A stretch of DNA of 64,000 nucleotides. Origin: Chitinivibrionales bacterium. GTDB lineage: Bacteria; Fibrobacterota; Chitinivibrionia; Chitinivibrionales; WJKA01. Where the stretch lies: positions 12,758 to 76,757 of the forward strand of contig JBBRUX010000014.1 in the NCBI GenBank assembly GCA_038247415.1, in the 5' to 3' direction. Made by a program: the position numbers and the translations under genes. Below the pieces are notes generated by a model. The model did not search any database, was not told the DNA's origin, and saw only the letters and a list, made by a program, of their open reading frames with translations. Shown here one piece after another: positions 43,998-64,000 of the stretch; position 1 is the first letter of the stretch; every line of letters starts with the position of its first letter.

Positions 43998-44017
43998 TGT
44001 TGACTGGCCAGTCAACA
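43998..44017. promoter_or_regulatory. Perfect 20-bp palindrome, candidate operator
   Basis: TGTTGACTGGCCAGTCAACA centred 62.5 bp before ATG 44070; TATATT at 44058-44063. Confidence 0.65.
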
Positions 44018-44069
44018 CATGTTTCAATAAAGCCCACACGAAGCGCAACTTATACGCTATATTTCCTGT

Positions 44070-44930
44070 ATGGCTATCACAGACCCTACACTTTTTGATT
44101 ATTTGGATTACCGAGAATTCCTTCGGGATTTCTTTAAGGAGCAGAAACGTCGGCACTTCTACTACTCTTTTCGCTATATTGCACAAAAGACTGGTATAGA
44201 CCCGGCACATCTTGCGCGGGTTTTTCAGAGCAAGCGCCATTTATCGCAGAAGAGTCTGGATTCGATTGTTTCCTTGTTGAAACTCACCGATGACGAGCAA
44301 GTTTTTTTCACGCGGCTTTTTGCCTTTAACACAGCCCGAACCGAACGCGAGGCTAAGCGGGCATTTGAGGAGATCCTCGCTTTCGGAGGCGTCAAATCCA
44401 AAACGCTGCACGCCGGGCAATTTCGTTTCTATACAAAATGGTACTATACGGCAGTACGCGCCCTTATTGCCATGCGATTATTTACCGAGCGAGACTACGC
44501 TGCCATCGCGCGAAGTCTGAGTCCGTCAATTTCACTGTCTGAGGCTAAGGATGCTGTCCGTTTGCTCCTGGAACTCGGTCTTGTTGAAACAGGTTCTGAT
44601 GGAATTTTGAGAGTGCTCGATACGCACATCAGTACCGGCCCTAAGTGGCGCTCGATCGCTGTTAAAGCATTTCATTCGGAGACTATAAAGCTTGCGGGTG
44701 AATCTATTGAGCGGCATCCGCGCGAAGTTAGGGACATATCAACAGTTACCGTAGGGATCAAACGCAGCCGAATGGATGAAATTCGTCAGCGGATTGTTGA
44801 ATTTCGTTCGTCAATTATGCATCTTGCAGAAGAAGACACCGATCCCGATGAAGTTTACCAATTGAATATTCAACTCTTTCCCTTGACTGATACCTCAAGC
44901 AAAAAGGGGCATGGCGATGAAGTGTTGTAA
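44070..44930 (+). CDS. TIGR02147/DUF4423-family HTH protein
   Basis: LFDYLDYREFLRDFF, SFRYIAQKTG HTH, KWYYTAVRAL, RDISTVTVGI, VYQLNIQLFPL. Confidence 0.88.
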   Translation: MAITDPTLFDYLDYREFLRDFFKEQKRRHFYYSFRYIAQKTGIDPAHLARVFQSKRHLSQKSLDSIVSLLKLTDDEQVFFTRLFAFNTARTEREAKRAFEEILAFGGVKSKTLHAGQFRFYTKWYYTAVRALIAMRLFTERDYAAIARSLSPSISLSEAKDAVRLLLELGLVETGSDGILRVLDTHISTGPKWRSIAVKAFHSETIKLAGESIERHPREVRDISTVTVGIKRSRMDEIRQRIVEFRSSIMHLAEEDTDPDEVYQLNIQLFPLTDTSSKKGHGDEVL

Positions 44931-46449
44931 GCCCGTCGGCTTCCTGATTGCCATTGCAGCAGTAACGCTTGTTCGCTGCTCCAATACTACAAATGTTGCG
45001 GGGAATAGCAGCTCCGAAACAACCAATGGCGTTACCGCCGCAATTGTCTATTCCAACGGAACCCCTGCAGCTCATGCTGTCGTGCGAGTACGAGCGAGCG
45101 ACTACCTTGCCGATACAACTGTAGCTCTTGCTAAAAGCCTTACAATGAGCGATGATATTCTCACTGATGATTTTGGTCGCTTTAAGATCGATTCTCTTGA
45201 CACCGGTAAATATCTGATCGAGGCGGTTGATGCATATGGTAATGCCGTTGCGATTCCATTCACAGTTATCAAAGATTCTTTGGTCAACCTCGGTAATCGG
45301 ACCCTTTCGCCGATGGGGACGATTGCAGGATCGGCGGGTGGGCCTTTTGTGAAAGCAGTAGTGCGCGTACGTGGACTCGAACGCGGTGTGCGGCTTGATC
45401 GGGATGGACGATTTGCAGTTACGGTTCCTTCGGGTCAATCATACATCGTCAACTTTTCCACACAAGATTCATCAGCCGACCTGACCCCTACGCAGCCCAT
45501 TGCGTCATCGCAATCGGTGGTTGTCAACGCAGACTTCGGCCATTACCGGACCGATTCGCTGGCAGTGCGGGCGTTTCTTGATAGTTCGGGATTACAAGCG
45601 GTGAGGGTCGATTCGGTAACGGTTGTGAGTTCACCGGTACGCCGGATCACTGCACTGCACCTGACGGATCGGAATCTGTACGTTCTCCATCAGTCCATTG
45701 GGTCGCTCGTATTCCTTAATGAGCTAAGGCTCAGCGGCAATAAGCTCACCGATCTTCCCGCAACGCTTGCGCGCCTCTCTCATCTGTATCATTTGTATAT
45801 CGATAGTTTACCGATGACACGGCTGCCGGATTGCGTGGCGCAGATTCGTTCGCTTACGCTTCTTGACATTAATAATACGCAGATTACTACGCTGCCAACC
45901 TCTCTGAGTGCGTGCACGTCGCTCAACGTCATCTCGATGCGCGGTACCGGGGCCACGGAGTTTCCGATGGTCGTCGTGTCGATGTCGTGGATGTCCACGC
46001 TTAATATCAGTGAGAATCCAATAAGCACGATACCCTCTGGAATCGGCGCATGCACCTCTTTGCAGCATATAGAGTTTCACGATACCCAGATCGACTCTCT
46101 GCCTGCATCTATCGGGACGCTTCGAAATCTGCGTAGCATATTTGCTTATCGAAGCCGCCTAACCACTCTCCCTGCATCAATCGGTATGCTGAGTGCCCTG
46201 GAAATAGTGGGAGTTGGTAGCTGCGTTCTAAACTCGCTTCCACCCGAACTTGGGGACTGCGCGGCACTCAAGATATTGAATTTGGATAACAATGCGCTGG
46301 ATTCGCTTCCGGCCAAGATCACCAATCTTACAGCTCTTACGAGCTTGACAATCGCCGGAAACCATCTCTGCACGCTTCCGACGGCCATCGCTGCCTGGGC
46401 CGATACGTATGCAGAACCATCGTGGCGAACAAATCAAACATGCCCCTAG
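44917..46449 (+). CDS. Lipoprotein with carboxypeptidase-regulatory-like domains and leucine-rich repeats
   Basis: Lipobox LVRC; AGNSSSETTNG; TDDFGRFKI..GKYLIE; about ten LxxLxLxxNxLxxLP repeats; alternative start 44911. Confidence 0.85.
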   Translation: MKCCKPVGFLIAIAAVTLVRCSNTTNVAGNSSSETTNGVTAAIVYSNGTPAAHAVVRVRASDYLADTTVALAKSLTMSDDILTDDFGRFKIDSLDTGKYLIEAVDAYGNAVAIPFTVIKDSLVNLGNRTLSPMGTIAGSAGGPFVKAVVRVRGLERGVRLDRDGRFAVTVPSGQSYIVNFSTQDSSADLTPTQPIASSQSVVVNADFGHYRTDSLAVRAFLDSSGLQAVRVDSVTVVSSPVRRITALHLTDRNLYVLHQSIGSLVFLNELRLSGNKLTDLPATLARLSHLYHLYIDSLPMTRLPDCVAQIRSLTLLDINNTQITTLPTSLSACTSLNVISMRGTGATEFPMVVVSMSWMSTLNISENPISTIPSGIGACTSLQHIEFHDTQIDSLPASIGTLRNLRSIFAYRSRLTTLPASIGMLSALEIVGVGSCVLNSLPPELGDCAALKILNLDNNALDSLPAKITNLTALTSLTIAGNHLCTLPTAIAAWADTYAEPSWRTNQTCP

Positions 46450-46590
46450 AAGGAGAGTATCTCGTATGATTTCATTGCATTGCGGTTCTGCGCCTTAGCG
46501 CCAGCAAAAAAAAACAAATTCCTAAAACTATTCGTTTCAACATGCGCAAAAAAGCGCCCTTAATATCATTTTGTCCAAAGGAGAAGCAGT

Positions 46591-48402
46591 ATGAAAAACG
46601 TTCCTCAACTAACGACACTATTGACGCGAAGGATTTCGCTGACAATCATGGCGCTAAGTTTTGTTCTGGTTGGCGCTTGGACATCAGTTGGCGCGGCACG
46701 CTTCGGAATCAACCTCGGTGGACTGTCGCCCTACGCAACCGAATTCGTCTATAAAGATCTTGTCAAGACGATGGGAGCGCAGCGAAAGGGCACGGGATTT
46801 ACAGAAGAACAGTTTGATACCAATGGGTATCCGAAATTCCTGAATGCTGGTCAATCAATCGAACTTTACTTTGGAGATGGAACGGGGCAGATATGGCCCG
46901 TTGGCGATTATCACGTTTTTTATGATGGTGAAGGGACCGTATCAGAAAAAACCGGTTCTGCAATACTTAAACAAACGGTAAGTCCAGGTCATCAGATCTG
47001 GACGGTTATTCATGGGTCAGCCGATGGATTGAAATTTTCTATCGATGCAACCACCTCTTCAAACTACCTCAAAAATTTGAGGATCATACTTCCAGGCTTC
47101 GAGAACAATTATCAGGCTGATCCAATCCATCCAAGCTTCAAACAGCTATGGTCGGGTGTCTCAGCCTTCAGATTCATGGACTGGATGGGGACAAATGGCT
47201 CCACCGCCACTCGTTGGAATCAGATCCCCTCGGCGGGCTATCTTGCGCTTGGCTATAACGGCATGTGGGGAGGTCAAACTTTTTCCTCGGATCGATACAA
47301 CGGCTCACCTGAGCTGGCTGTTCAAGTGTGTAACGCTATGAACGCCGATATGTGGATCTGCATGCCGGCACATGCTTCGGACGATTGCATCCAGCATCTG
47401 GCGCAACTCGTCAAAAATAACCTGAACGGGAATCTCAAGGTCTACATCGAGTATTCGAATGAATGCTGGAACTGGATTTTTGAGCAGACTGGCTATTGCC
47501 GCGACCAGGGGGTTGAGTTGGGGTTGACCACAGGTGGAGCGCTTGAATACTACGTCTACCGTAGCGGACAGATGTTCAAGATCTGGGAAGACGTCTGGGG
47601 AACTTCCAAGTCTCGCGTAGTTAATGTTTTCGCTTGGCAGACTACAACCTCCAATCCCGAAACATGGATCAATACGGCAATCAACACCTGGTACAAGAAC
47701 AATCCCAAATACAATCCAGCCGGCGCTTTACCGGAGTTCTATGCAAATGCTCCCTACATTTGGGACAAAGATCAAACGGCTTCGAGCGTCGATCAACTTT
47801 TCGCGGGAATCAACGATGACATGAGTGTCGATTTCAACATCATGAGCTCCCAGAAAAGCTTCGCGGATGACAACGGGCTTGAGTATGGATGCTACGAGGC
47901 AGGGCAGCATTATAGTTCGTACGGCCAGAATGAGGCTCTTGACAATAGCGTATTCATTCCCGCCAACCGTGACATGCGGATGAAAACGGCGTATGAGGCC
48001 TATCTGGGCTATTGGAAGAACACCATCGGCGCGGGGTTGATGATGCTTTACTCTTCTTGTGGCACCTACAGCAAATACGGTTCGTGGGGCATTCTTGAGA
48101 GATACAACCAGGACATCACCACTTCGCCAAAGTATATGGCTGTCAAAGGCATTATGAACCTTGGCCAATCCACCACAGTTCGACCAGTCCTTCCCAACAA
48201 CTCTAAATCCGCCGGCTTTGGCAAGCCATCCAACCTACAAGCAAGCGCACGTGCGGGGATAATGGTTGACATACAAGGTCGATCTGTCAGTTTTGCACAA
48301 GGAAGCCAAAGCTCTGGACCCGGCGTGATTATCACTAAATTGACAGGAAATAACAATTCGACAAAATGCATTCTGGTTTCAAAAAAGAACTTTTCACGTT
48401 AA
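46591..48402 (+). CDS. Secreted putative clan GH-A-like glycoside hydrolase with T9SS-like tail
   Basis: Signal peptide; FRFMDWMGTN, YIEYSNECWN, YEAGQH; VDIQGR tail. Confidence 0.65.
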   Translation: MKNVPQLTTLLTRRISLTIMALSFVLVGAWTSVGAARFGINLGGLSPYATEFVYKDLVKTMGAQRKGTGFTEEQFDTNGYPKFLNAGQSIELYFGDGTGQIWPVGDYHVFYDGEGTVSEKTGSAILKQTVSPGHQIWTVIHGSADGLKFSIDATTSSNYLKNLRIILPGFENNYQADPIHPSFKQLWSGVSAFRFMDWMGTNGSTATRWNQIPSAGYLALGYNGMWGGQTFSSDRYNGSPELAVQVCNAMNADMWICMPAHASDDCIQHLAQLVKNNLNGNLKVYIEYSNECWNWIFEQTGYCRDQGVELGLTTGGALEYYVYRSGQMFKIWEDVWGTSKSRVVNVFAWQTTTSNPETWINTAINTWYKNNPKYNPAGALPEFYANAPYIWDKDQTASSVDQLFAGINDDMSVDFNIMSSQKSFADDNGLEYGCYEAGQHYSSYGQNEALDNSVFIPANRDMRMKTAYEAYLGYWKNTIGAGLMMLYSSCGTYSKYGSWGILERYNQDITTSPKYMAVKGIMNLGQSTTVRPVLPNNSKSAGFGKPSNLQASARAGIMVDIQGRSVSFAQGSQSSGPGVIITKLTGNNNSTKCILVSKKNFSR

Positions 48403-48427
48403 AACAAGTATTCAATGGGAGGTATCC

Positions 48428-50806
48428 ATGAAAGACACATGCAAATATATGTCAATACATCTATCCGGTCGGAAGTGGGAATTTCCCTCTTTTGCAGTGT
48501 TCCTGCTTATTACGCTGTGTGCTCTGCCAAGCAACGTCCATGGGCAAATGAATGTCGGCTTTAACTTCTGGAGTCTTGACTGGGGATCATCTTCGGCAGG
48601 TGATCCGAAGTATAACTACTTTGCTCACAATGTCAATTGGACAACCACGACCAATCCCTGGAACCCTACCTTCATCGCCGAAATCCAACAAGCCCAGGCC
48701 AAATGCCTTCGATTCATGGACTGGGGGGTGACCAACAGCAGCACCGTCGCTTCATGGAGCCAGCGAATCGCCAAAACGGCCAATCATTACACCGGCGCAA
48801 CGCTGCCCCAGACTGGCGGTGGCCAATCGGGCGTCGCCTACGAATGGATGATTGACCTGTGCAATCGTGTGAATGCGGATCTGTGGGTTTGTGTTCCCCA
48901 TATGACAGATGCAAATTATTCCAACCAACTCGCCACCTTGATCAAGAATAACCTCAACGCTAACCTGAAGGTGTATGTTGAGTACTCAAATGAATGCTGG
49001 AATGATGGTTTCAATCAAACGGGCTGGCTGGATGCCCAGAGAAATATCAATGGGCTCGCCAATCCGCTCAAATGGAATGGCAAAAATATTTATGGTTTTG
49101 GTAACGGTGGAGATTGCCGATGGTCGGAATATGTGTACTTTGCTTGCAAAACGATGAATGAGTTCAATAAGGTCTTTGGTGATAATAGCTCGCGAGTTGT
49201 TAAGGTGTTATCTGGGCAGGCCGGATGGGGCGGCGGCGGCAGCACCAATGACATGTGCGAATACCACATGGCTTGCTCTCAAAGTCCGATATGCAATCCG
49301 TGGGGAGTCAAGATAGATGCGTATGCAATAGCGCCTTATTGGAACGCAAGCGAGCATACGCCCCTGGGCACCGAAGCATCGATGCGGGCAAGTCTTGCTG
49401 ATTGCGTTCATTTCCTGGACAACACGCAAACTGCGTTGACAGGTTCGGGTATTCCCCTTATTTGCTATGAAGGGGGACCGGATAATTTCAGTATTGAAAG
49501 TATCTCCAACAGCCCTTTTCAGGAACAGCTCACCCTCGATGCGCTGAATGCATTTCAGGCGAAAGTCCAGGGCATATTTATCTGGTACACTCTTATCGGG
49601 CAAGTGTGGGGGCTTAAGGTGCAAGTCGGTGATGATCCTTCGGTATCGCCAAAGTGGCGCGGGTACATGACTTGGTTGAATACGTCAAGTACGTCACCTG
49701 CGTCAATTACAGTTGAGCCATCCAACGATTCAATTTTCCCCGGCTCAACTGCCTCCTTCTCGGTCTCTGCTATCGGGACAACGCCCGTTTCGTATCAATG
49801 GAGAAAAAATGGTGTGGTCATCGCCGGTGATACAGCGTCAACACTCACTTTGTTTAATGTGCAAGCAATAGACAACAATGCGAAGTATAGCGTTATTGTC
49901 AAGAATGCATTTGGAGCGGATACGAGTAGGGACGCAATTCTTATTGTCAAAGCCTTTGATGGGTTGCAGATCCAAAAGACCTCGGGTGCGCCAGTTATGG
50001 ACGGAAGCGAGAGTGCACAGTGGCAAGGCGTTGCACCACAGTCTGTTGCACACGCATTGGCAGGCGCTCCTAGCAGCGCTGCGGACTTTTCGGTTCAGTT
50101 CAAGGCACTGTGGGATGCATCCAATCTCTATGTCTTTGTCAAGATTTCCGATGGCATCGCCTATAATTCGGCAACGGTGGCATATCAAAATGATGGCATG
50201 GAAATTTATGTTGATGGCGATAACAGTAAGGGATCATCCTATGACGCCAACGATATTCAGTATCGCATCGTACGTGGCAAGGTCGCGCTTGAGGCATCGG
50301 ATCCCAGCAAGACCACGGGTGTTGTGGTGGTTCAGAAAGAAATTGCTGGAGGGTATAGCGCAGCCTTCACCATTCCCTGGACAACGATCGGGACCACCGC
50401 TGTTGCATCAAAGCTGATGGGTCTTGAAGTTCACGCTTTTGACAATGACGGCACGCCTGAGCGCAAAACGGTTCTTGCATGGGCAGGAACAACCGACAAC
50501 GCGTGGAATACGCCTTCTGCATTCGGCACGGCAAAGCTCTCCGATGCTACTACCCGGGTGATGCATTCAAATATATCCTCGGTGAGTACCTTGACGCAAT
50601 CGTATCTTCTCGCGTCACTGAGAAATGGAGTTGTCAGAGACGACAGAATTCGGTCGATGGCTCTGTATGATATGAGTGGACGTTTGATGTGGCAAAGTTC
50701 ACAAACCCACACGAGTTCTATGCCATATCTGAATAAAGGCATTTTTCTTTGCAGGGTAATCCAATCTAATGGTGTTTCAAATGCTTTTAACTTTGTCAAT
50801 AAATGA
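48428..50806 (+). CDS. Secreted GH-A-like hydrolase + Ig-like + CBM9-like domain + T9SS-like tail
   Basis: LRFMDWGVTN, YVEYSNECWN, YEGG; SYQWRKNG Ig motif; LWDASNLYV..DGMEIYVDGDN; YDMSGR. Confidence 0.7.
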   Translation: MKDTCKYMSIHLSGRKWEFPSFAVFLLITLCALPSNVHGQMNVGFNFWSLDWGSSSAGDPKYNYFAHNVNWTTTTNPWNPTFIAEIQQAQAKCLRFMDWGVTNSSTVASWSQRIAKTANHYTGATLPQTGGGQSGVAYEWMIDLCNRVNADLWVCVPHMTDANYSNQLATLIKNNLNANLKVYVEYSNECWNDGFNQTGWLDAQRNINGLANPLKWNGKNIYGFGNGGDCRWSEYVYFACKTMNEFNKVFGDNSSRVVKVLSGQAGWGGGGSTNDMCEYHMACSQSPICNPWGVKIDAYAIAPYWNASEHTPLGTEASMRASLADCVHFLDNTQTALTGSGIPLICYEGGPDNFSIESISNSPFQEQLTLDALNAFQAKVQGIFIWYTLIGQVWGLKVQVGDDPSVSPKWRGYMTWLNTSSTSPASITVEPSNDSIFPGSTASFSVSAIGTTPVSYQWRKNGVVIAGDTASTLTLFNVQAIDNNAKYSVIVKNAFGADTSRDAILIVKAFDGLQIQKTSGAPVMDGSESAQWQGVAPQSVAHALAGAPSSAADFSVQFKALWDASNLYVFVKISDGIAYNSATVAYQNDGMEIYVDGDNSKGSSYDANDIQYRIVRGKVALEASDPSKTTGVVVVQKEIAGGYSAAFTIPWTTIGTTAVASKLMGLEVHAFDNDGTPERKTVLAWAGTTDNAWNTPSAFGTAKLSDATTRVMHSNISSVSTLTQSYLLASLRNGVVRDDRIRSMALYDMSGRLMWQSSQTHTSSMPYLNKGIFLCRVIQSNGVSNAFNFVNK

Positions 50807-52505
50807 TGAGTTTACAGACTCACTTTTAATGGGAAAACAAATGCGCATATGTCTTATGGTTCTTATGACCGTAGTATCCCTTTCGTATTCTGCAACCATC
50901 ACTTCCTACGGCCTGGGCAATAGCCTCATGGACGAATTCGATGGTATTCCAACCCTTGCTGCGAGCAAAGGAGACGTGTGCAATCATGGCCGGTACACCA
51001 TCCCCGGGTGCGGCATGAAGTGCCTCTGGGATTTGATTCCTGGTTTACCTCCCGGATTCTCGTCAAAGCGTCTCGATTGCGTGCTTACCGAGGCATTTTG
51101 CAATGGCGACGAGCTCAATATCGACGGTGACTCGAAGTACATGGGCTATTACTACGATGCATCCTTGGCCGTCAATCCCAATTGTCGCCTTCTTGTATTC
51201 ACGCAATGGATGTCAAAGGATTGGGGTTCCTGGAGTGTTTGGGAAACCCTGTGGCATAGCACAACACAGGACCTCTGTCCCAAATATGGCACGGCTGCCT
51301 ATCACGAGGGCCTGGTGCTTAAACTGAGAGCCATGTACCCGAGTAAGGAAGTTTCCCTGCTGCCCATCGGACACGTCATGGACCTTTTTGAGCACGAGGC
51401 AGCAGCGGGCAGAATACCTGGATACAGTGGCGCCTTTGGTCTCTTTGCCGACGGCATTCACCTCAACACCGACGGCAAGTATCTGCAGAACTTAACAGCC
51501 TACGCAGTGATGTTCAAGAAAGATCCCCACGGCGCAGGCTTGTCGTTTGCGCAATGGTCCGGGACAGAAACGGTGACGCAGGCCTTCGCCAACATCGCAG
51601 CCGATCTCGTGTGGAAGACCGTCACCGACCTGAGCACTCTCACCAATGTTGGATCCTCGACTCCCGGCAAGACTATCATCGCACGCATCGTAGCCGACAA
51701 GGCATCGGGAGCTGCGCCATTGACCGTCGCGTTTGACGGATCGGGATCTACAGGAACAAATCTTTCCTACGCATGGAAGTTCGGTGATGGACAAACAGGG
51801 ATCGGATCAAAAGTCAACCACATGTATCAGACAGCGGGTTCGTACAAGGCTGTTCTCACAGCAACCGGCGGAGCGGAGAAGGACTCGGCGCAGACCACGA
51901 TCACTGTCTCAATACCGGTGGAAGCCTACAAGATCAGCAAAACATCAAATATGCCTCTCATGGACGGAAGCGAGAGTACGCAGTGGCAGACTGCACCTGC
52001 GCAACCCCTTACCCACGCTCTCACGGGTGCACCCACGAACGCCGCGGATTTGTCCGTGCAATTCAGGACGATGTGGGACGCAACCAACCTCTATGTGTTA
52101 GTCAAAGTGACGGATGATATCGCCTCCAACAGCGCGTCAATGACCTATCAGAACGACGGCATCGAAGTCTATGTGGATGGCGATAACAGTAAGGGATCAT
52201 CCTATGACGCCAACGATATTCAGTATCGCATCGTTCGAGGAAAAACCAGTCTCGAGACATCGGGCACGGACAAGGCAACGGGAGTTGTGGTGACTCAGAA
52301 AGAGATTGCAGGGGGCTATACAGCAGCCTTCACCATTCCTTGGACAACTATCGGAACCACTGCCTCGGTCTCAAAAATGATCGGAATGGAAGTTCACGCC
52401 TTCGATAACGACGGCACAGCTTCGCGAAAGACGGTTTTGTCGTGGGCTGGCACAACCGACGATGCCTGGGCCACACCATCGGTTTTTGGGACAGCGCAGC
52501 TTGTC
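49970..52505 (+). repeat. Duplicated CBM9-like domain DNA (about 49970-50545 and 51930-52505)
   Basis: 59-bp exact match at 50213-50271 and 52176-52234 within a longer collinear similarity. Confidence 0.9.
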
Positions 52506-52721
52506 GAAACAGGAGCAACGACGATTCGCAATGCACACACGAGAAGCTCGGGCATTATAAACACTGTCCAGGGAGAGATGGTGAAGATGGTTGACATCCG
52601 TGGGCGGAGTATCAGACAGAATGATAATTCATCAAGTGTCATTGTCATTCAACTGACAAGCAAAAATAAGGCTGCGATTCCGCGAGTCGTTGTTTCTAAA
52701 AACAGCCGGAGGGTCTGGTGA
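50841..52721 (+). CDS. Secreted SGNH-like hydrolase + PKD + CBM9-like domain + T9SS-like tail
   Basis: LGNSL and DGIH motifs; GAAPLTVAFDGS..WKFGDG PKD motif; MWDATNLYV; VDIRGR. Confidence 0.7.
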   Translation: MRICLMVLMTVVSLSYSATITSYGLGNSLMDEFDGIPTLAASKGDVCNHGRYTIPGCGMKCLWDLIPGLPPGFSSKRLDCVLTEAFCNGDELNIDGDSKYMGYYYDASLAVNPNCRLLVFTQWMSKDWGSWSVWETLWHSTTQDLCPKYGTAAYHEGLVLKLRAMYPSKEVSLLPIGHVMDLFEHEAAAGRIPGYSGAFGLFADGIHLNTDGKYLQNLTAYAVMFKKDPHGAGLSFAQWSGTETVTQAFANIAADLVWKTVTDLSTLTNVGSSTPGKTIIARIVADKASGAAPLTVAFDGSGSTGTNLSYAWKFGDGQTGIGSKVNHMYQTAGSYKAVLTATGGAEKDSAQTTITVSIPVEAYKISKTSNMPLMDGSESTQWQTAPAQPLTHALTGAPTNAADLSVQFRTMWDATNLYVLVKVTDDIASNSASMTYQNDGIEVYVDGDNSKGSSYDANDIQYRIVRGKTSLETSGTDKATGVVVTQKEIAGGYTAAFTIPWTTIGTTASVSKMIGMEVHAFDNDGTASRKTVLSWAGTTDDAWATPSVFGTAQLVETGATTIRNAHTRSSGIINTVQGEMVKMVDIRGRSIRQNDNSSSVIVIQLTSKNKAAIPRVVVSKNSRRVW

Positions 52722-53752
52722 TAAAGAGCATTGTCAATCGGCACAACCTGATCGCCGCATCAGTGATGGTGGTTGCGCTGGGAGCCGCAGGATCGGCAGC
52801 AACCACCACGCACAAAGGGGGAATGGTCCTGATCCCGGCACAAGGGAAATCCTTTCTGATGGGACAGGCGGGCATTGCCGATACCGAGCATACGGTGTCA
52901 TTCACCTACAACTACTGGATGGACACTACCGAGGTAACTCAGGCCGACTTCGGGTCGCTGATGAACTTCAACCCATCCTACTATCCCAATGAGTTTGCGC
53001 CGGTGGAGATGGTGACCTGGTATGATGCGGCGCTGTACTGCAACAAGCGGAGCAAACGCGATCACCTTGACACATTCTATGTTTACACAGGCAAGAATGT
53101 CAACACAAACGGCAACGGCAACACCATCACCGGTCTTGTGAACCTAACCTACAGGCCGGATGGGCGTGGGTATCGTTTGCCAACCGAGGCCGAATGGGAA
53201 TTCGCGGCACGGACAGGGAGTGCAACGACTTACGATTGGGGAGACACGGTCAATGGCGACTATTGCTGGTATCAGGTGAACAGCAATCAAACGACCCATC
53301 TTGTTGCTCAAAAAAAGCCTAATTCATTCGGGCTTTACGACATGATCGGTAATGTGCTGGAGTGGACAATGAACGTGACGGCGCAGAGCAACTACGCTGC
53401 TTTGGCAGTTGCCGACCCGCAGCCAATCGTGAGTGGACTGGCCAGCGCTCGTGGGGGGAAATTCAGTTCCATGCCGAGCGAAATGCCGCCCGCTCTTCGG
53501 TACCGGTCTTTAGCTTCTTATGTGTCGTCGGGGACGTATGGGTTTCGGGTAGTGCAATCAGTTGATCTGGTTTCGATTGGAAACAGTCGACACAGTCAAT
53601 CGCCAGGATCGCATTCTTCAATAAAAAATTCATTTGGAATACGAGGGCGTTGTGGACTGTCGATTGCACACGGGAAAGGCAGATACGATTTACATGGCAG
53701 ACTGATTTCTGGCAAGGTCGCTGAAATGAAGATGAGTATGAGCCGGTTCTGA
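52718..53752 (+). CDS. Secreted FGE-sulfatase/SUMF1-fold protein with T9SS-like tail
   Basis: MDTTEVTQ, PVEMVTWYDA, YRLPTEAEWEFAAR, PNSFGLYDMIGNVLEW, YGFRVV. Confidence 0.88.
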   Translation: MIKSIVNRHNLIAASVMVVALGAAGSAATTTHKGGMVLIPAQGKSFLMGQAGIADTEHTVSFTYNYWMDTTEVTQADFGSLMNFNPSYYPNEFAPVEMVTWYDAALYCNKRSKRDHLDTFYVYTGKNVNTNGNGNTITGLVNLTYRPDGRGYRLPTEAEWEFAARTGSATTYDWGDTVNGDYCWYQVNSNQTTHLVAQKKPNSFGLYDMIGNVLEWTMNVTAQSNYAALAVADPQPIVSGLASARGGKFSSMPSEMPPALRYRSLASYVSSGTYGFRVVQSVDLVSIGNSRHSQSPGSHSSIKNSFGIRGRCGLSIAHGKGRYDLHGRLISGKVAEMKMSMSRF

Positions 53753-53822
53753 ATATCGACTATTATACTGTTCAAACGACAGGGGCTGGATAGCGAATAT
53801 TTTCCGAATTGATAGTTGCCTG

Positions 53823-54533
53823 ATGCACGAAAGCTCATCCGAAAACAGCGCTGCCGGCGGCGGCATTATTCACCATAACGTGTTTTACGGATATAATGCC
53901 ACGGTGTTTGCGTTTACGTCAACGGTCAGGAATCTCAAATTCTTCAACAACACCTGCATTGGTAGCGACAATCACGCGTCAGGTTTCATCTCATTAGCAG
54001 ACTCGCTTAGTGCAACTGATTCATTGACTATAAAAAATAATATCATCTGGAGTAAGATGTTGGGAGGGAGGTTCGTTTCGCTAGGCCCGAAAGCGTTGAT
54101 AGGAAGCCACAATGCCATGACGAATAACATCATTCGTAATTTGTCATTGAACATCACTGGCACGATTTCTGCAAATGATACTGTTGATCCTAAGCTTTAG
54201 ATGACGGGCGCAAAACCATTGCCGTTTTTCAATCCAGTCAGCTCAATCGGACTAACGGTAGATCGGGGAATCAATGTTGGATATCGATACAAAGGATCTT
54301 CGCCGGATATCGGAGCGTATGAATATGAATCGGGGACTAAGGTAGCTTCGATGCTGCCTTCTTTACCAATTGTATATCGAACAAAGAAGATAGGCTTAAC
54401 GTTGCAAGCTCAATTCGATATTGCTGCTCGGAGATTAATTGACTCAAAAGGAAACCCATCTTCCAAATCATCGGGCGAGTACGTTAGGCACATTTTAGGA
54501 GGAACATGGCTGAGGGAATCAATTATGAAATGA
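53823..54533 (+). pseudogene. 5'-truncated right-handed beta-helix protein with in-frame stop
   Basis: IHHNVF, FFNNT, IKNNII repeats; DPKL*MTG (TAG at 54198-54200); PDIGAYEY; no signal peptide. Confidence 0.7.
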
Positions 54534-57091: not shown

Positions 57092-57334
57092 ATGGTTCGC
57101 ACCCAGATTTACCTGACCGAAGATGAAAAAAACGGCCTCGAATCGGTAGCCTTGGCAAAAGGCCTAAGCCAGAGCGAATTGATCAGGCATGCGATCGACG
57201 ACCTACTCAGCAAAAGTGGTACGCCAGATAAGTCAGCGATCCTTGATGAAATTGCAGGAATTTGGTCCAACAGGAAAGATCTTCCCGATGTCCGTGACCT
57301 GCGTGCCGGATGGCGTCGGAGGCCTTCACGATGA
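57092..57334 (+). CDS. vapB: Ribbon-helix-helix (CopG) antitoxin
   Basis: MVRTQIYLTE..SQSELIRHAID; AGIWSNRKDL. Confidence 0.85.
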   Translation: MVRTQIYLTEDEKNGLESVALAKGLSQSELIRHAIDDLLSKSGTPDKSAILDEIAGIWSNRKDLPDVRDLRAGWRRRPSR

Positions 57335-57720
57335 GTAAATCCGTTATTGTCGATACCGACATCCTGATAGATTTCCTGCGCGGTGGTAAACAGGCCATCT
57401 CTTTATTCAAGGATGAATCAGAACCCATCTGTTTTTCCGCAATTACAGTGGCCGAGATTTACGCAGGAATCCGGGATCGCAAAGAGGAAGAAGATGTCAA
57501 GCGACTTTTTTCCCTGTATACGGTAGTTTCGGCGACGCATGAAATCGCTTTGGAAGCGGGGAAACTTGTGAAGAAGTACCGGTCGTCGCATTCGGTAGAA
57601 ATCCCAGATGCGATAATTGCCGCAACATGTCTTGTTTCTGATATGGAGTTGCTGACGCTTAATATCAAGCATTATCCGATGCTCAAGGGTTTAAAGCCGC
57701 CCTATCGAAAATCCAATTAA
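57331..57720 (+). CDS. vapC: PIN-domain toxin
   Basis: VDTDILIDFLRG, SAITVAEIYAG, DAIIAAT, LTLNIKHYP; ATGA overlap with the antitoxin. Confidence 0.92.
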   Translation: MSKSVIVDTDILIDFLRGGKQAISLFKDESEPICFSAITVAEIYAGIRDRKEEEDVKRLFSLYTVVSATHEIALEAGKLVKKYRSSHSVEIPDAIIAATCLVSDMELLTLNIKHYPMLKGLKPPYRKSN

Positions 57721-57731
57721 GCAAGCCTAAA

Positions 57732-57992: not shown

Positions 57993-58027
57993 TAAATTAT
58001 TCTTACTTTTATTGTATCTTTTAACAT

Positions 58028-59291
58028 ATGAAGCGCGATATCAATCAAAAACTCATTGCATGGAAAATATCTCCTCGTCGAAAACCCTCTCTATTTAAAC
58101 TTTGAAGAGCTACCGGAACTTGGGGATCTTTTTAAAAGGAGCCTTGAACCAGAACGAATTTTAGGAATGCTTTCGATATATGCCCAGCGATCGATTGATA
58201 CCAAAAACGAACTGCTGATTTTTGATGAGATCCAATCGTGCAACGCAGCCTTAGCATCCCTTAAATATTTTCAGGAAAAACGTCCTGACGTACATATTGC
58301 AGTGGCAGGTTCACTTTTGGGATTAAAAATGTCTACACCGGGTACATTTCCCGTTGGGAAAGTCAATCTTTTACAACTTCACCCCATGACATTTCCGGAA
58401 TTTCTAGATGCCATTGGCCAGTCACGCTATCGGAATCTGATTGAAACTAGTGAACTGATCGAACCATTTGCTGAACCGTTTCATAACGATCTTATTGACT
58501 TATTGCGTATCTATTACTTTGTGGGTGGCATGCCAGAGGCAGTGCAGATCTATATTTCAACAAGCGATACAAACCAGGTGCGAGAAGTTCATAAAGAAAT
58601 TCTTGACACCTACGAACTCGATTTCGCAAAACATGCTCAAGCAACCGATATTCCTAAACCATCCGCTGTCTGGCACTCGATTCCAAATCATCTCGCCCGC
58701 GAAAATAAAAGGTTCGTTTTTTCATCTTTACGGCAAAGTGCCCGAGGACGCGACTATGCCGATGCCTTGCAGTGGCTTACCGATGCAGGGCTCATTTATA
58801 AAACCAAGGCCATTTCTCATGTAGAACTACCGCTTGCCGGGATGGCACATGAAGAAATATTTAAAGTATATGCTCTTGACATTGGACTTTTATCCGCTTT
58901 GGCAAACATTTCTCCAGCAATTTTAACGCATGGGTCAGAGTTCTTTCAGACATTCCATGGTGCATTCGTGGAAAATTATTGCGCGCAGCAATTGATTGCA
59001 TCCCAAGAATCGCAACTGTATTATTGGAAAAGTGAAGGAAAAAAAGCCGAAATCGACTTTATTTGTGAATTTGATGGAGCCATTTTTCCATTCGAAGTCA
59101 AGGCAGGAATAAATACCAAAAGCAAAAGTCTGCAATCGTATGATCAGTACTATAACCCAAAATTGCTTATTCGCAGCAGTTTACTGAATCTTAAGCATAA
59201 CGGAAAAATTCTCAACATTCCACTTTATGTAGCTGGATCGATACAGCGTTTTGTAAGTATGGCATTGATACAACCACACATTTTAAAATGA
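58028..59291 (+). pseudogene. AAA_14/DUF4143 ATPase-nuclease with Walker A deleted and frameshifted
   Basis: MKRDINQKLIAWKISPRRKP, then another frame LYLNFEE..IFDEIQ..AGSLLG..GGMPEAV..EIDF..PFEVKAG..IPLY; no GxRQVGKT. Confidence 0.88.
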
Positions 59292-59538: not shown

Positions 59539-60048
59539 ATGATCAATATAAACAACTATGAAGTGTGGTTTGTTACCGGAAGTCAACACCTCTATGGAGA
59601 GAAAACGCTCGCCCAGGTTGCAGAGAATTCTAAGACCATCGCCGATGCAATGGGTTTGGCACTGCCGATAAAGGTTATTTACAAACCGGTTCTCACGGGC
59701 CCCGATGCCATTGCAACGCTTTGTCGGGAGGCGAACAACTCACCGTCTTGCATCGGACTTATCTGCTGGATGCATACATTCTCTCCGGCTAAGATGTGGA
59801 TTGGTGGGTTCTGGCAGGATGCCGATGTGCAGAACGAACTCTCGGTATGGACACGGGTTGCAGCAGGATGGATCTTTGCAGGCGGAGCTCATCATACCTG
59901 CTTTACGCAGGAGATTACCCAGCAGTATCTTGAAATCTTCGCCGAAATGGCAGGAATGGAGTGCGTGGTTATTGGCAAAGATTCGATGGTCGACCAAATT
60001 CGCAAGGAGCTTCGGTGGAACGAGGCATATTATGACAGGGGTAGGTAG
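59539..60048 (+). pseudogene. araA: L-arabinose isomerase reduced to 169 aa by two in-frame deletions
   Basis: [27 protein letters not shown] / [12 protein letters not shown] / [17 protein letters not shown]; intact AraA is about 500 aa. Confidence 0.9.
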
Positions 60049-60131
60049 ATCGATACAATCAATAATCGAGATAGCGTGCCTTATAGGAAAGCATTCTCAG
60101 GATTACCTTGATTACTAAGCAAGGATAAAAT

Positions 60132-60162
60132 TAAGATTTTGGACGTTCCAGCTTCGCTGTCG
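60132..60162 (+). repeat. 31-bp dispersed element, copy 3
   Basis: TAAGATTTTGGACGTTCCAGCTTCGCTGTCG; 24/31 identical to copy 2. Confidence 0.65.
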
Positions 60163-60485
60163 ATACACACCCTAGGCTCAGTGTCTGGTAGAGCATGGCA
60201 GGGGCGAGGCATAATTGACATTTGCGGCAGATAAGACTGGAAGGTGACGCTCAGATTGAGAATGTGTGAATACTAGTAGCTGGGCTCCCACGGGTGTTGG
60301 TTTTCGTTGACTAGTGACCGTACGTCCATCCCCGCTTCGACAGGCACTCACTGCAAAACTTGAGCAGACTCAATAGATTACGCATCAACAAAACTCGTAA
60401 TAGAGGTGAACGTTCTCAGGAATAATAGTGTCATTACTTTAACATAATAAATGCTTTATGATGTCTAATTAAGTGACCTTATCAA

Positions 60486-60513
60486 AAATCGTTCACCAAA
60501 AGGTGAACGATTT
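60486..60513. promoter_or_regulatory. 12-bp inverted repeat, candidate operator
   Basis: AAATCGTTCACC-AAAA-GGTGAACGATTT centred 63.5 bp before ATG 60563; TATATT at 60551-60556. Confidence 0.65.
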
Positions 60514-60562
60514 CTTCTCACCCTACGTTCTACTCCGGCTCTGTTTCTACTATATTATCACC

Positions 60563-61429
60563 ATGACACCCAACAAGCCTATTGTTCCCAGCCCGATCTG
60601 CCTATTCGACTACACCGACTATCGCCGGTTCCTCGAAGACTACATCCAGGAAAAGAAGACCGAAAATTCCCACTTTTCCTTTCGCTACATTGCCGATCGA
60701 CTTGACTTGCGATCGAGCGGCTTTATTCTCTATGTCATTCAGGGAAAGCGGCGGCTTTCCGAGGAGCTCACGTTCAAGATTTGCCAGTTCTTTAAGTTTA
60801 CCAAAAAGGAGACGGAGTATTTCCTCCTTCTTGTTAAATATGCTCACACAAAGAGCTTTGTTGAAAAACAGTTCTACTTCGATCGGCTTGCAGCGATGCG
60901 AAGGGTGACGGTGAGGTGCATCGAACCGCAAAAATACCGCTACTATGAAAAGTGGTACTATCTTGCTATACGCGAATACGTGGCTATTCATCGATTTGTG
61001 GATCAGTACGAAAAGCTTGCCCGCGATCTCACGCCGTCAATTACCCCTGCCCAGGCTGCAGAGGCCATTCATACTCTTGAGGAGCTCGGTCTGATAAGAA
61101 AAAACGAGCAGGATTTTTACGAGCGCGTTGAAGCCGTCACCAGCACCGGTGATGCATGGCAATCGGCCACGGTTCACAACTTGCAACAGCAGCTTTTGGA
61201 TATCAGTAAAGATGCCCTAGCGCGATTGCCAAAAAAGAAGAGAGACTTTTCAAATCTCACACTCAGCATGTCACGACGCACGTTCGACGAAGCCCGCATA
61301 CGTATCGAACAATTGCGCGCTGAACTTTTGGAATTAGCTCGGCGTGATGAAAATCCCGATGGAATTTATCAAATAAGCATCCAAGCCTTCCCTTTGCACG
61401 ATGACTTTTCGAAGGGTGGTAACATATGA
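60563..61429 (+). CDS. TIGR02147/DUF4423-family HTH protein
   Basis: LFDYTDYRRFLEDY, FSFRYIADRL, KWYYLAIRE, RDFSNLTLSM, IYQISIQAFPL; paralog of 44070-44930. Confidence 0.88.
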   Translation: MTPNKPIVPSPICLFDYTDYRRFLEDYIQEKKTENSHFSFRYIADRLDLRSSGFILYVIQGKRRLSEELTFKICQFFKFTKKETEYFLLLVKYAHTKSFVEKQFYFDRLAAMRRVTVRCIEPQKYRYYEKWYYLAIREYVAIHRFVDQYEKLARDLTPSITPAQAAEAIHTLEELGLIRKNEQDFYERVEAVTSTGDAWQSATVHNLQQQLLDISKDALARLPKKKRDFSNLTLSMSRRTFDEARIRIEQLRAELLELARRDENPDGIYQISIQAFPLHDDFSKGGNI

Positions 61430-62541
61430 GGTCGTTATTCTGGACATTCATCATTCTCGCTTCATGTATACTCATGTGCTCTGAATCGTCAACCACTGTT
61501 GCTGCAGGCGGTGGCGGTTCGGAAGTCACCAATGGCATTATCGCCCGAATCATCAGAAGCGATGGACATCCCGCTGTGGGCGCTTGTGTCAGGCTGCGAA
61601 GCGAATATTTTCTGGCGCAGTCAACCGGACTCGGCAAATCCGCCACCTACGAAAATGCCGTTACCGACACAAATGGGGAGTTCGAAATCCGGGGAATTGG
61701 CCTGGGAGCACATCGAATCGAGATTAACGATAATGTCTCTGGCGCTGTTCTTCTCTCATGCTCAATCTCCGCATCGACCCACCTGCTCGATCTCGGGGTT
61801 GATACGCTGCGACCCTTTGCCGCCATCACAGGGACACTGCAGGGGGCAGCCGCAGGGCACTCGCTACAGATTTACGGGATGGAAAGAAGTGCGCAGGTGG
61901 ATTCCACCGGATCATTCGCTTTTAGCAAACTACCCGGAGGGATCTATCGGTTGGTCGTAACGTCAAATAACAACTCTGCGTCTCCTGTCTTGTTGGATTT
62001 GGTTACTGTGGCTCCTGGAGGGATTAAAAATATTTCTGCCACAATTGCAGCACTTAACCCTTTGGCCGATGCGCATGTTCGCGGTGGCGGTGGCGCCGGG
62101 ATTAACTACGGCGGTGAGGTTCAGCTTACCGTCAAGGAAGCGCTGAGCACCGACCTGGACTACACCAGAAATGCTTACCTCAAGTTCGATGTGTCAGGCA
62201 TCGCAACGGCGACCAAAGCAGTACTTATAGTGTACGGCAAGAACATGGATGATAGCTTGGACGTTTCCTTGATAATTCACGGCTGCGATTCCGACATCTG
62301 GACCGAAGGAGGCATCACGTGGAACAACGCCCCTGCCAATTCGTCAACCCTCGACACCGTGATAGTCAATGGTACGGCCGCTTACCGGGAGTTGGATGTT
62401 ACACGATTTGTGCAAGCCCAGATCGCGGGGGATCATACGGTTACGCTGTGCATCACGGCCAAGGCGGAATCGAACAAGGTGGTCTTCCTCAACAGCAAAG
62501 AGAGTTCGGCGAACAGACCGCAGCTTGTCATCACTCCGTAG
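61426..62541 (+). CDS. Lipoprotein with carboxypeptidase-regulatory-like domains and DNRLRE/CBM96-like domain
   Basis: Lipobox ILMC; AGGGGSEVTNG; TDTNGEFEI; ADAHVRGG..NYG, RNAYLKFDVS, WTEGGITWNNAP, DVTRFV, SKE...RPQLVI. Confidence 0.85.
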   Translation: MRSLFWTFIILASCILMCSESSTTVAAGGGGSEVTNGIIARIIRSDGHPAVGACVRLRSEYFLAQSTGLGKSATYENAVTDTNGEFEIRGIGLGAHRIEINDNVSGAVLLSCSISASTHLLDLGVDTLRPFAAITGTLQGAAAGHSLQIYGMERSAQVDSTGSFAFSKLPGGIYRLVVTSNNNSASPVLLDLVTVAPGGIKNISATIAALNPLADAHVRGGGGAGINYGGEVQLTVKEALSTDLDYTRNAYLKFDVSGIATATKAVLIVYGKNMDDSLDVSLIIHGCDSDIWTEGGITWNNAPANSSTLDTVIVNGTAAYRELDVTRFVQAQIAGDHTVTLCITAKAESNKVVFLNSKESSANRPQLVITP

Positions 62542-62728
62542 CAGATATGCGTTTTATGGGAAAATGTTCGATTGTTTTTAGGTAAGAGCTCGGTTTAAAG
62601 TGTACAAACCTACAGACGTGTGGGGGAGTGGACGGTTGAGACGAGATTCGTGTTGAGGCAAAGGCTGGGTGCGAGTTTCTTTTCCTTGGGTAATATTTTT
62701 TTGAATCATCAAAAAGGAGTCTTTGAAT

Positions 62729-64000
62729 ATGAAACTGAGGATCAATGCATCCATAATTACGGGCATTTTGTTCTGCCTCATCGCAGCAACTTCGTCCCTC
62801 GTAGCCCAGACATTCACCCATCCGGGAGTACGGCACAGTCGCGGTGATCTGGATCTCATGAAGTCCCGTATTCTTGCAAATCAACAACCGTGGAAGGGCG
62901 CATACGACAACATGATTGCCTGGCAGGGTTACGGTGATGGAAAGCTTGGTCGCACTCCCAGCAGCCTGAATTTTGCGCCGGCGCCGCGCACCACGATCGA
63001 TGTGGGTTACTATGAAAAACCGCACATCGGATTCGACGAAGCGTTGACCGACGCTACTGCCGCTTACATCCATGCGATTCAGTGGTATATAACCGGCAAC
63101 AGCGCACATGCCGAAAAAGTCATGGCCATCTGCAAAGCATGGGGAACTTCACTCACCTCCATCAGCGGTGACAACGCTAAGCTTGCCACCGCGTGGATAA
63201 CATCAATGTTCTGCGATGCCGCCGAAATCGTTCGCACGACGTATTCCGGGCCCCAGGACTGGACAGCGTTTGACAACATGCTCCGAACCAAGTTCTACAC
63301 GACGATGTACGATTTCGCGCCAAGCGGCTTCAACGGGAACTGGGACGCCCTTATGAGCCAGGCGATGATGTCGATGGGGGTGGTGCTCAATGATCGCGCC
63401 ATCTATGATCGGGGGAAGAACTATTACCTGAGCGGAAAAGGCAATGGTTCCCTGCCCAACTACTGCTTCACCGATGGAACCACTCAGGAAACCACCCGGG
63501 ATCAGCGGCATGAACAAATGGGAGTCCTGGCGCTCGCAAACTCTGCCGAGATTGCCTGGAAGCAGGGAGAAGATCTTTACAGCGCGCTGGGCAACCGGCT
63601 TCTCATCGGCCTGGAAGGAACAGCGGGCCGGGTAGACGCTCAGAACTTCGGTGCGTACCCCGGCTGGGACATTCCCTACAATCATTACCACAATCGCAAG
63701 CACCTTGCCACGCCCACAATGGATTTATTCAAGAAGACCACCGAATGGGGCGGCGACAACTGGTCGTATAATACGGTGGGCTTTTGGACGGCCATGACCT
63801 TTCGGGATCTGGGCGATCCGAATCCCAATCCGGTTACTCCGCCGGTACCCGTTCCAACGCCAATCCCTGACACGCGTACTAACCTTGCCCTGAACAAGAC
63901 TACAACCGCTTCGTCAAGCGATACAAATATTGCGGCAAACGCGGTTGATGGCAATCTTGAAACCCGCTGGTCGGCTGATGCGTATCCCCAATGGATCCGG
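62729..64000 (+). CDS. Secreted alginate-lyase-family protein with Pro/Thr linker and F5/8 type C (CBM32-like) domain, partial
   Basis: Not in the ORF track (open to window end); AAGGAG RBS; MKLRINAS.. signal; FTHPGVRH, NGNWDA, QETTRDQRHEQMG; PVTPPVPVPTP; NLALNKTTTASS..AVDGNLETRWS. Confidence 0.85.
   Translation, partial: MKLRINASIITGILFCLIAATSSLVAQTFTHPGVRHSRGDLDLMKSRILANQQPWKGAYDNMIAWQGYGDGKLGRTPSSLNFAPAPRTTIDVGYYEKPHIGFDEALTDATAAYIHAIQWYITGNSAHAEKVMAICKAWGTSLTSISGDNAKLATAWITSMFCDAAEIVRTTYSGPQDWTAFDNMLRTKFYTTMYDFAPSGFNGNWDALMSQAMMSMGVVLNDRAIYDRGKNYYLSGKGNGSLPNYCFTDGTTQETTRDQRHEQMGVLALANSAEIAWKQGEDLYSALGNRLLIGLEGTAGRVDAQNFGAYPGWDIPYNHYHNRKHLATPTMDLFKKTTEWGGDNWSYNTVGFWTAMTFRDLGDPNPNPVTPPVPVPTPIPDTRTNLALNKTTTASSSDTNIAANAVDGNLETRWSADAYPQWIR

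Follow-up and report, generated by a model that had tools for sequence, protein, structure and literature searches.

The stretch of DNA analysed here (the window: 64,000 nt of contig JBBRUX010000014.1, positions 12,758 to 76,757, from the Chitinivibrionales bacterium assembly GCA_038247415.1) contains two loci at which a gene for a protein of the TIGR02147/DUF4423 family overlaps a gene for an exported lipoprotein. The pair is a conserved unit found throughout the phylum and is undescribed in print. Each of the two loci is probably a self-regulated two-gene operon, likely transcribed without a leader, for a stalked, lipid-anchored binding protein. This reading draws on the pairing of the two genes, on a motif behind the lipid anchor (the tether motif) and its restriction to the regulator's partners, on repeated sites that keep their positions upstream of the regulator gene, and on the folds of the encoded proteins. 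New are the partner specificity of the tether motif, a layout of three upstream sites that is conserved in orthologues, and the likely leaderless promoter. A family without assigned function now has a fixed partner, a partner-specific motif, candidate binding sites and a predicted leaderless promoter, all of which can be taken to the bench. Should adhesins or binding proteins prove to be what the cassettes control, this would be relevant to substrate attachment and substrate choice in these bacteria. In the best-studied member of the phylum, according to its genome paper, few recognisable regulators lie near the fibre-degrading genes (PMC3079729).

The genes of the two cassettes are:

44070 to 44930, plus strand: regulator 1, TIGR02147/DUF4423 family, 286 aa, predicted XRE-type helix-turn-helix (HTH) followed by a winged helix (TIGR02147 263.2 bits; AlphaFold2 (AF2) model and fold matches)
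44911 to 46449, plus strand: lipoprotein 1, 512 aa, signal peptide with Cys23, tether VAGNSSSETTNG, two predicted beta-sandwich stalk domains, leucine-rich repeat (LRR) head; overlaps regulator 1 by 20 nt
60563 to 61429, plus strand: regulator 2, TIGR02147/DUF4423 family, 288 aa (TIGR02147 249.3 bits; start from paralogue alignment)
61426 to 62541, plus strand: lipoprotein 2, 371 aa, signal peptide with Cys18, tether AAGGGGSEVTNG, stalk domains, CBM96/DNRLRE head; overlaps regulator 2 by 4 nt (ATGA)

The regulator and lipoprotein genes form a conserved unit

An earlier note on this DNA had described two loci of the same architecture, each with a palindrome, a regulator gene and an overlapping lipoprotein gene, and this was confirmed by the coordinates, by profile matches and by a genome-wide search for the sites. 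The two proteins of about 287 aa that it assigned to TIGR02147 both belong there, scoring 263.2 bits (regulator 1, profile positions 4-271 of 272) and 249.3 bits (regulator 2) against a curated cut-off of 50, and both match DUF4423 (PF14394) in their C-terminal part (117.5 and 112.6 bits, cut-off 30). For regulator 2, alignment with its paralogues places the start at the ATG at 60563, replacing the GTG at 60473 of the listed open reading frame (ORF). The two regulators are 34% identical and the nearest paralogue of regulator 1 lies on a different contig, which indicates that the window holds two old members of the family; a local duplication of the cassette was ruled out on these grounds.

The genome of the window (G000; 3.84 Mb in 99 contigs, 96% complete) encodes 13 full-length TIGR02147 proteins, two of them in the window, and 12 of the 13 genes directly precede a lipoprotein-type gene. 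Eight of these 12 junctions are ATGA overlaps of 4 nt; the others comprise a 20-nt overlap, an 8-nt overlap, a 4-nt gap and one junction, on contig C19, that is apparently frameshifted. The thirteenth gene, on contig C26, is without a lipoprotein partner. At the C19 junction (locus L011, 1733-1800) the ATG overlapping the regulator stop opens a frame of just six codons, and the lipoprotein frame has a TTG start 57 nt later with a very short signal sequence, which may reflect a frameshift or an assembly error.

The same pairing, which the note had proposed to score across the phylum, was also found outside this genome. Among the 30 best-scoring loci, all of family f10, every one has a lipoprotein partner (29 identified by script, the thirtieth in the later analysis of the tether motif). 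In a further set of 60 loci, taken from ten genomes of ten other families, 59 have a full-length regulator, and scripts together with manual reading placed an exported partner behind 58 of these, starting between -76 and +21 nt from the regulator stop codon. At the exception, L101, there is just a secreted protein that lacks the motif and begins 151 nt away. Two partners (L066 and L086) have a Cys-less membrane helix as their anchor and still carry the motif. The converse also holds: in the complete genome G104, 37 of 41 matches to the N-terminal module of the lipoproteins lie directly behind a TIGR02147 gene, and in the window's genome a profile of this module finds just the ten partners that bear it and one broken remnant. 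This orphan (C12:50979-51527) retains the motif AGGSGGETTNG and the first stalk domain, has neither a signal peptide nor an upstream regulator, and its frame decays after about 100 aa.

TIGR02147 proteins are present in 189 of 201 sampled genomes of the phylum; the unpublished genome G194 is part of this count and contributes a single genome to it. Matches per genome reach 69 in G104 and 50 in G130, and the family comprises 11,510 clusters at 50% identity (E <= 0.001). The 12 genomes without the family are all small (1.6-2.9 Mb) and belong to the genera g9, g10 and g45 (3, 8 and 1 genomes), and this restriction to three genera suggests lineage-wide loss. Five of them gave weak matches to the N-terminal module (best E = 4e-10), all to ordinary CarboxypepD_reg lipoproteins without an upstream regulator, whereas four of five genomes with TIGR02147 gave matches of 1e-15 to 1e-31; a joint absence of regulator and lipoprotein module is suggestive only. 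In six other genomes of the same family as the window's, no close orthologue of either window lipoprotein was found, the best identities being 29-40%. The literature on TIGR02147/DUF4423 and on Fibrobacter lipoproteins, regulators and promoters yielded no description of the cassette.

The regulators are predicted to carry two domains of DNA-binding type

The AF2 model of regulator 1 (predicted local distance difference test, pLDDT, 90.2) comprises two domains of DNA-binding type, followed by two long helices and a conserved tail. Residues 11-96 align with HTH domains of the HigA, DdrO and P22 c2 type (Z 7.5-8.4 over 73-82 residues) and residues 113-195 with the winged helices of ArsR, PadR, MarR and BlaI (Z 6-7); PDB 4g6q, a structure of unknown function, covers residues 114-272 with a Z of 7.1. 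Lambda cI was matched weakly in a profile search of PDB sequences (E = 0.014), and a Pfam scan of the regulators gave no match to an HTH family. An XRE-type HTH followed by a winged helix is a likely assignment rather than a proven one, because Z scores in this range may reflect a common arrangement. No membrane segment was seen in the model.

A phage or plasmid origin was rejected, as tblastn searches of phage and plasmid collections gave no match in either. Longer or fused regulator forms were dropped as a lead: a Serpin domain is joined to DUF4423 in one 514-aa protein (P0153), a single sequence from one 2.6-kb contig that may be a fusion made in gene calling.

Repeated sites precede a probably leaderless promoter

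Both regulator genes are preceded by the following elements:

43924 to 43930, plus strand: distal half-site TGTTGAC of copy 1, 146 nt 5' of the ATG; third copy of the 7-mer
43998 to 44017, no strand assigned: perfect 20-bp palindrome TGTTGACTGGCCAGTCAACA, candidate operator of copy 1, centre 62.5 nt 5' of the ATG; GTTGACTG....AGTCAAC at the same distance in L137 and L138
44058 to 44063, plus strand: -10-like TATATT, 6 nt 5' of the regulator 1 ATG; same hexamer in L137 and L138
60405 to 60412, plus strand: distal half-site GGTGAACG of copy 2, 158 nt 5' of the ATG; third exact copy of the 8-mer
60487 to 60514, no strand assigned: inverted repeat AAATCGTTCACC-AAAA-GGTGAACGATTT with 12-bp arms and a 4-nt spacer, candidate operator of copy 2, centre 63.5 nt 5' of the ATG
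60551 to 60556, plus strand: -10-like TATATT, 6 nt 5' of the ATG at 60563

The half-sites of copy 1 (GTCAACA/TGTTGAC) are located at -146, -72 and -59, those of copy 2 (CGTTCACC/GGTGAACG) at -158, -73 and -61, and in each case the two inner ones form the palindrome or inverted repeat. Both palindromes are single-copy in the 3.84-Mb genome even when up to four mismatches are allowed. As each repeated site precedes its own regulator gene only, no wider regulon is visible.

Regulators with 64% and 60% identity to regulator 1 are encoded at two metagenome loci, L137 and L138, where GTTGAC is retained at -145/-72/-60 and -144/-71/-59 while the flanks diverge. The string GTTGACTG....AGTCAAC stands at the same distance from the ATG, TATATT ends 7 nt 5' of the ATG, and both loci also keep a partner with the tether IAGNSSSETTNG. 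The palindromes of the window thus appear to behave like operators, as the note had supposed, since their positions are conserved in orthologues. A contig search for an orthologue of copy 2 found no relative of regulator 2, so that the conservation of the sites refers to copy 1 alone.

Similar arrangements occur elsewhere in the family. At least three copies of a 7-mer were present in 14 of 80 dereplicated upstream regions, compared with 0.9 in shuffled sets (maximum 3). Perfect inverted repeats with arms of at least 9 nt were present in 12 of 86 regions, four of the 12 in the -60 to -69 bin, compared with 0.5 per shuffled set. The three-site layout recurs with other words in L082 (-136/-73/-62) and L085 (-157/-82/-71), and family f10 has three conserved GTGTTC direct repeats in place of the layout seen in the window. 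A shared TGTT(C/G) core was considered and dropped, as the enrichment over 71 upstream regions gave A/T tracts alone. Many f10 loci (L020-L040) also have a conserved hairpin with 11-13-bp arms, GGACTTCCG...CGGAAGTCC, some 160-220 nt 5' of the regulator, which probably terminates the upstream gene or represents a repeated element.

Neither a Shine-Dalgarno sequence nor an evident -35-like hexamer was found 5' of the two regulator ATGs, and a -10-like hexamer ends 6-9 nt 5' of the start in 25 of 101 family members. Judged from the position of TATATT and the missing Shine-Dalgarno sequence, the regulator transcripts are likely leaderless. The cassette promoter can be likened to that of lambda cI, whose transcript is leaderless and whose promoter lies against the start codon. 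Promoter and terminator scans gave counts not clearly above those of shuffled sequences, and no terminator was called in the gap behind either lipoprotein gene.

Class I activators often sit near -62, upstream of promoters without a -35 element. Both cassettes have their site centres in this position, at -62/-63, and their promoters show no -35 hexamer; this would also suit a self-activating regulator that makes each cassette bistable, ON or OFF. By such a stochastic switch the cells would display varying subsets of the 13 lipoproteins (up to about 70 in other genomes) without any external signal. The lack of a sensor domain in the regulator model, the restriction of the sites to the cassette's own promoter, the large and variable copy number (69 in G104, 50 in G130) and the variation of the lipoprotein heads described below would all fit. 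We nevertheless consider surface variation of this kind unlikely: it leaves the conserved tether motif unexplained, and orthologous cassettes keep the tether and the N-terminal module across regulators that are 60-64% identical, which argues for a stable function rather than rapid variation.

The partners are predicted to be anchored, stalked proteins with exchangeable heads

The two lipoproteins of the window had been described as alike over their first 190 residues or so and different at their ends, and this was borne out: residues 11-189 are shared with 33% identity (E = 3e-23), and then an LRR head follows in lipoprotein 1 (LRR_14 98.5 bits, cut-off 40; LRR_8 67 bits, cut-off 27) and a CBM96/DNRLRE head in lipoprotein 2 (CBM96 148.9 bits, cut-off 26; DNRLRE 96.5 bits, cut-off 34). 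Lipoprotein 1 also matched the type III effectors XopAC/XopL/XopAE with 102-120 bits, through its LRR part alone and without reaching their cut-offs of 450-600. Among the 12 partners encoded in the window's genome, four have an LRR head, one CBM96, one Laminin_G_3 and six none or an unknown one. Fold matches of the stalk domains include pilin, CnaB and SdrD-B domains and, with E = 1e-4, the LRR lipoprotein BT_0210 (PDB 4ecn). In the AF2 model of lipoprotein 1, the signal helix is followed by the tether (residues 24-39), which is unstructured (pLDDT ~61-65), and then by two beta-sandwiches; the cleavable-type N-terminal signal helix is the sole membrane-type element.

Where the note had listed a lipobox for both proteins, a hydrophobic signal helix and a Cys are present, but the residue before the Cys is non-canonical, R in copy 1 (LVRC) and M in copy 2 (ILMC). 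A canonical lipobox, taken as [LVI][ASTVI][GAS]C at the end of the signal peptide, occurs in 60 of 86 partners. An alignment of 29 partners shows the Cys to be invariant, whereas their signal peptides are not conserved. For Bacteroidota surface lipoproteins, a net negative charge after the Cys has been used as a definition (bioRxiv 10.64898/2026.10.03.756453). Here the net charge after the Cys is 0 in copy 1 and -1 in copy 2; in the set of 86 partners it is negative in 45, positive in 4 and neutral in 37.

A tether motif is specific to the regulator's partners

All 12 partners in the window's genome carry variants of the motif (V/L)AG..S/T-E/D-T/V-x-N-G, 8-18 residues after the Cys, including two whose later domains are unrelated (L001 and L006). 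Variants in other families include VAGTVTDTGNT, VAGGTEAEST and IAGPITETGNP. A 24-residue profile was trained solely on 73 distinct tethers from other genomes and run on 11,577 ORF segments of the window's genome. Six partners and the C12 remnant made up the top seven, and eight of the top 11 were partners; the individual E-values were weak (0.0014-0.47). A crude screen found a loose core of the motif in 5 of 337 other candidate lipoproteins of this genome. The SE[T/V]TNG motif pointed out in the note is real and specific to the partners of the regulator. Both the profile ranking and the low count among other lipoproteins show that it does not serve the lipoproteins of this genome in general as a sorting signal, and its presence on the Cys-less membrane helices of L066 and L086 shows that it is independent of lipidation.

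The retention of the motif where later domains differ (L001, L006) and in the Cys-less partners, together with the tight translational coupling of the two genes, would suit a feedback loop in which the regulator senses its partner before or during export, be it as unexported precursor, released signal peptide or tether motif, and synthesis tracks export capacity. However, the motif is located in the mature, exported part of the protein, and the signal peptides are not conserved. We regard a loop of this kind as very unlikely.

A probable self-regulated cassette for an anchored binding protein

In the reading that we favour, a promoter directly against the regulator ATG would give rise to a leaderless bicistronic mRNA. 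Its first product would be a cytoplasmic protein of about 285 aa with an XRE-type HTH and a winged helix. As an oligomer, this protein may bind the three cassette-specific half-sites upstream of its own promoter, with the palindromic pair centred about 62 bp 5' of the start and the distal site 75-97 bp further up. The bound regulator would set the transcription of its own gene and of the overlapping lipoprotein gene, by activation or repression. The second product would be exported and lipid-anchored via the invariant Cys, and a disordered tether with the motif, followed by two beta-sandwich stalks, would present the swappable head, an LRR domain in copy 1 and CBM96 in copy 2. The lipoprotein, an adhesin or binding protein, would thus be the regulated cargo rather than a sensor.

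Several points weigh against this proposal. An input signal is missing from it, and the model of regulator 1 shows no domain recognisable as ligand-binding. Conservation does not tell which of the two domains of DNA-binding type reads the DNA, the column entropy being alike for helix 3 of the HTH (2.20) and the recognition helix of the winged helix (2.12). Strong repeats occur in a minority of the family, with triple 7-mers in 14 of 80 and inverted repeats in 12 of 86 upstream regions, and k-mer enrichment of 71 diverse upstream regions yielded A/T tracts and no half-site common to the whole family. The repeat of copy 2 could also fold into an RNA hairpin followed by a T-rich run. In addition, the proposal does not account for the retention of the motif behind the Cys in the partners, and apparently in them alone, and gives no reason why each lipoprotein needs a private regulator.

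Relation to known systems

The closest known group is the family TIGR02147 ('Fsuc_second')/DUF4423 (PF14394) itself, of which both window regulators are full-length members far above the curated cut-offs. It is a family without assigned function, and neither the lipoprotein partner nor the tether motif or the repeated upstream sites appear in any family description found. A DUF4423 protein is mentioned in a table row of a proteome paper (PMC12546842).

XRE-type repressors and antitoxins such as lambda cI, P22 c2, HigA and DdrO are similar in the predicted fold of regulator 1 residues 11-96 and in the apparent self-regulation via repeated sites. They differ in that a winged-helix DUF4423 domain here takes the place of the cI-type C-terminal domain, and in that the partner is an exported lipoprotein and not a toxin or a lysis/lysogeny gene.

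Many paralogous pairs of a regulator and a binding module, with swappable heads of carbohydrate-binding type, are also known from SigI/RsgI in cellulolytic clostridia, from extracytoplasmic function (ECF) sigma/anti-sigma pairs and from the hybrid two-component regulators of polysaccharide loci in Bacteroidota. The cassettes share with these systems the many paralogous pairs per genome and the swappable heads, but the binding module is located on a separate lipoprotein without a cytoplasmic part. No sigma domain, transmembrane anti-sigma protein or kinase was among the Pfam and NCBIfam matches of the scanned window proteins.

Bacteroidota surface lipoproteins, including BT_0210 (PDB 4ecn), resemble the predicted architecture of the partners, with a lipid anchor, an immunoglobulin-like (Ig-like) or transthyretin-like stalk and a binding head. 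The Bacteroidota export signal differs from the cassette motif, which lies 8-18 residues after the Cys rather than directly behind it and is confined to the partners rather than general.

Genes downstream of the cassettes

The following same-strand genes lie behind the two lipoprotein genes:

46591 to 48402, plus strand: secreted 603-aa protein with its own Shine-Dalgarno sequence, without a family match (Pfam/NCBIfam scan)
48428 to 50806, plus strand: secreted 792-aa protein with an N-terminal domain without assignment, an Ig domain and CBM9 (CBM9_1 about 1e-40 to 1.2e-39)
50769 to 52721, plus strand: secreted 650-aa protein with an N-terminal domain without assignment, PKD and CBM9 (CBM9_1 about 1e-43 to 1e-42)
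52718 to 53752, plus strand: FGE-sulfatase-domain protein, resembling the N-terminal part of the TIGR02171 lipoprotein family (117.6 bits, below the cut-off of 544)
62729 to 64000, plus strand: secreted alginate-lyase-like protein with its own Shine-Dalgarno sequence (Alginate_lyase 9.4e-12), interrupted by the contig end

The first downstream genes lie 142 nt (copy 1) and 187 nt (copy 2) behind the lipoprotein genes and have their own Shine-Dalgarno sequences. The secreted carbohydrate-active enzymes that the note placed here were recovered in part: two CBM9 proteins and one Alginate_lyase match are present, but neither the Pfam and NCBIfam scans nor structure look-ups identified a catalytic glycosidase domain in the downstream proteins, and the 603-aa protein matches no family. 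The CBM9 of the 792-aa protein matches a xylanase CBM9 structure in the PDB. As leads only, atlas look-ups connected the 792-aa protein with TIM-barrel glycosidases (scores of just 0.76-0.78) and the 603-aa protein with hypothetical proteins bearing a Por_Secre_tail domain, the tail of the type IX secretion system (T9SS; score 0.91). TIGR02171 was first defined in the same organism as TIGR02147. Pfam and NCBIfam scans of 16 proteins from 40217-64000 gave neither a SusC-like nor a SusD-like match.

Degradative genes are not a general feature behind the pairs of the window's genome. Same-strand carbohydrate-related genes follow just 4 of the 12 pairs, namely both window copies, the pair on C69 (GH44 and a GDSL esterase) and that on C46, which was counted on a sub-threshold CBM9 match. 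Behind the other eight lie housekeeping genes, such as those for kinases, ligases and thioredoxins, or nothing of relevance.

A signal route across the envelope is improbable

The note had regarded the two genes as a regulatory system spanning the envelope. In such a sensor/regulator pair the head would bind an external polymer, some membrane component, perhaps reading the tether motif, would relay this event, and the regulator would switch on the adjacent degradative genes. The near-obligate pairing and the modular heads would be expected of such a system. The motif, being conserved, partner-specific and disordered, would suit a docking site, and the two promoters, with upstream sites and no recognisable -35, would fit an activator. 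Carbohydrate-related genes do follow both window copies and the C69 pair (GH44, GDSL esterase). However, eight of the 12 pairs in the genome precede housekeeping genes or nothing relevant, the LRR domains in four of the 12 heads are of a protein-binding rather than a glycan-binding type, and the repeated sites occur nowhere else in the genome, being unique to their own promoters. According to the models, neither protein has a transmembrane element: because the regulator lacks a membrane segment and the lipoprotein has a cleavable-type signal peptide only, nothing connects the outside to the inside, nor did the cassettes show a third gene that is conserved. The congruence of regulators and lipoproteins that the note had proposed to look for was not observed either, as the distances of regulators and lipoprotein modules were not correlated across those 10 pairs of this genome that could be compared (Mantel r = -0.12, p = 0.71), a weak test at 13-40% identity, where the signal may be saturated. 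With no membrane link, no co-diversification and sites confined to their own promoters, the claim found no support, and we consider a sensor/regulator pair of this kind quite improbable. A complex prediction for regulator 1 and residues 1-200 of lipoprotein 1 (both as alignments) gave 0.01 and 0.00 against a mark of 0.32; it was run without controls and no inference was drawn from it.

A self-regulated cassette, our preferred reading, leaves the disordered, partner-only motif unexplained, and for this reason a coupling between lipoprotein and regulator stays a minority possibility. In its most far-reaching form, to which we give little credence, the disordered motif behind the Cys (AG..S/T-E/D-T-x-N-G) would be the handle of an undescribed route from the envelope to the DNA, with a shared envelope or membrane component reading the state of each lipoprotein and passing it to the cognate TIGR02147 protein. 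If this were true, the dozens of cassettes per genome would represent a new class of one-regulator, one-receptor sensing without a kinase or sigma factor.

Genomic surroundings of the window cassettes

The cassettes and their downstream genes have a raised G+C content, 47-53% at 44000-54000 and 60000-64000, compared with about 43-46% between the cassettes and a genome mean of 43.7% (standard deviation 3.1 per kb). A foreign origin of the cassettes or an insertion between them is possible. Just 5' of copy 2, a 169-aa ORF at 59539-60048 joins 90 residues from the N-terminus of L-arabinose isomerase (~500 aa) to a short piece from its C-terminus and is probably a gene remnant. Further upstream, 57310-57720 contains a gene for a PIN/VapC-type toxin, for which the overlapping upstream 80-aa ORF at 57092-57334 could encode the antitoxin, and a gene for an AAA_14 + DUF4143 ATPase is located between the cassettes at 58056-59291.

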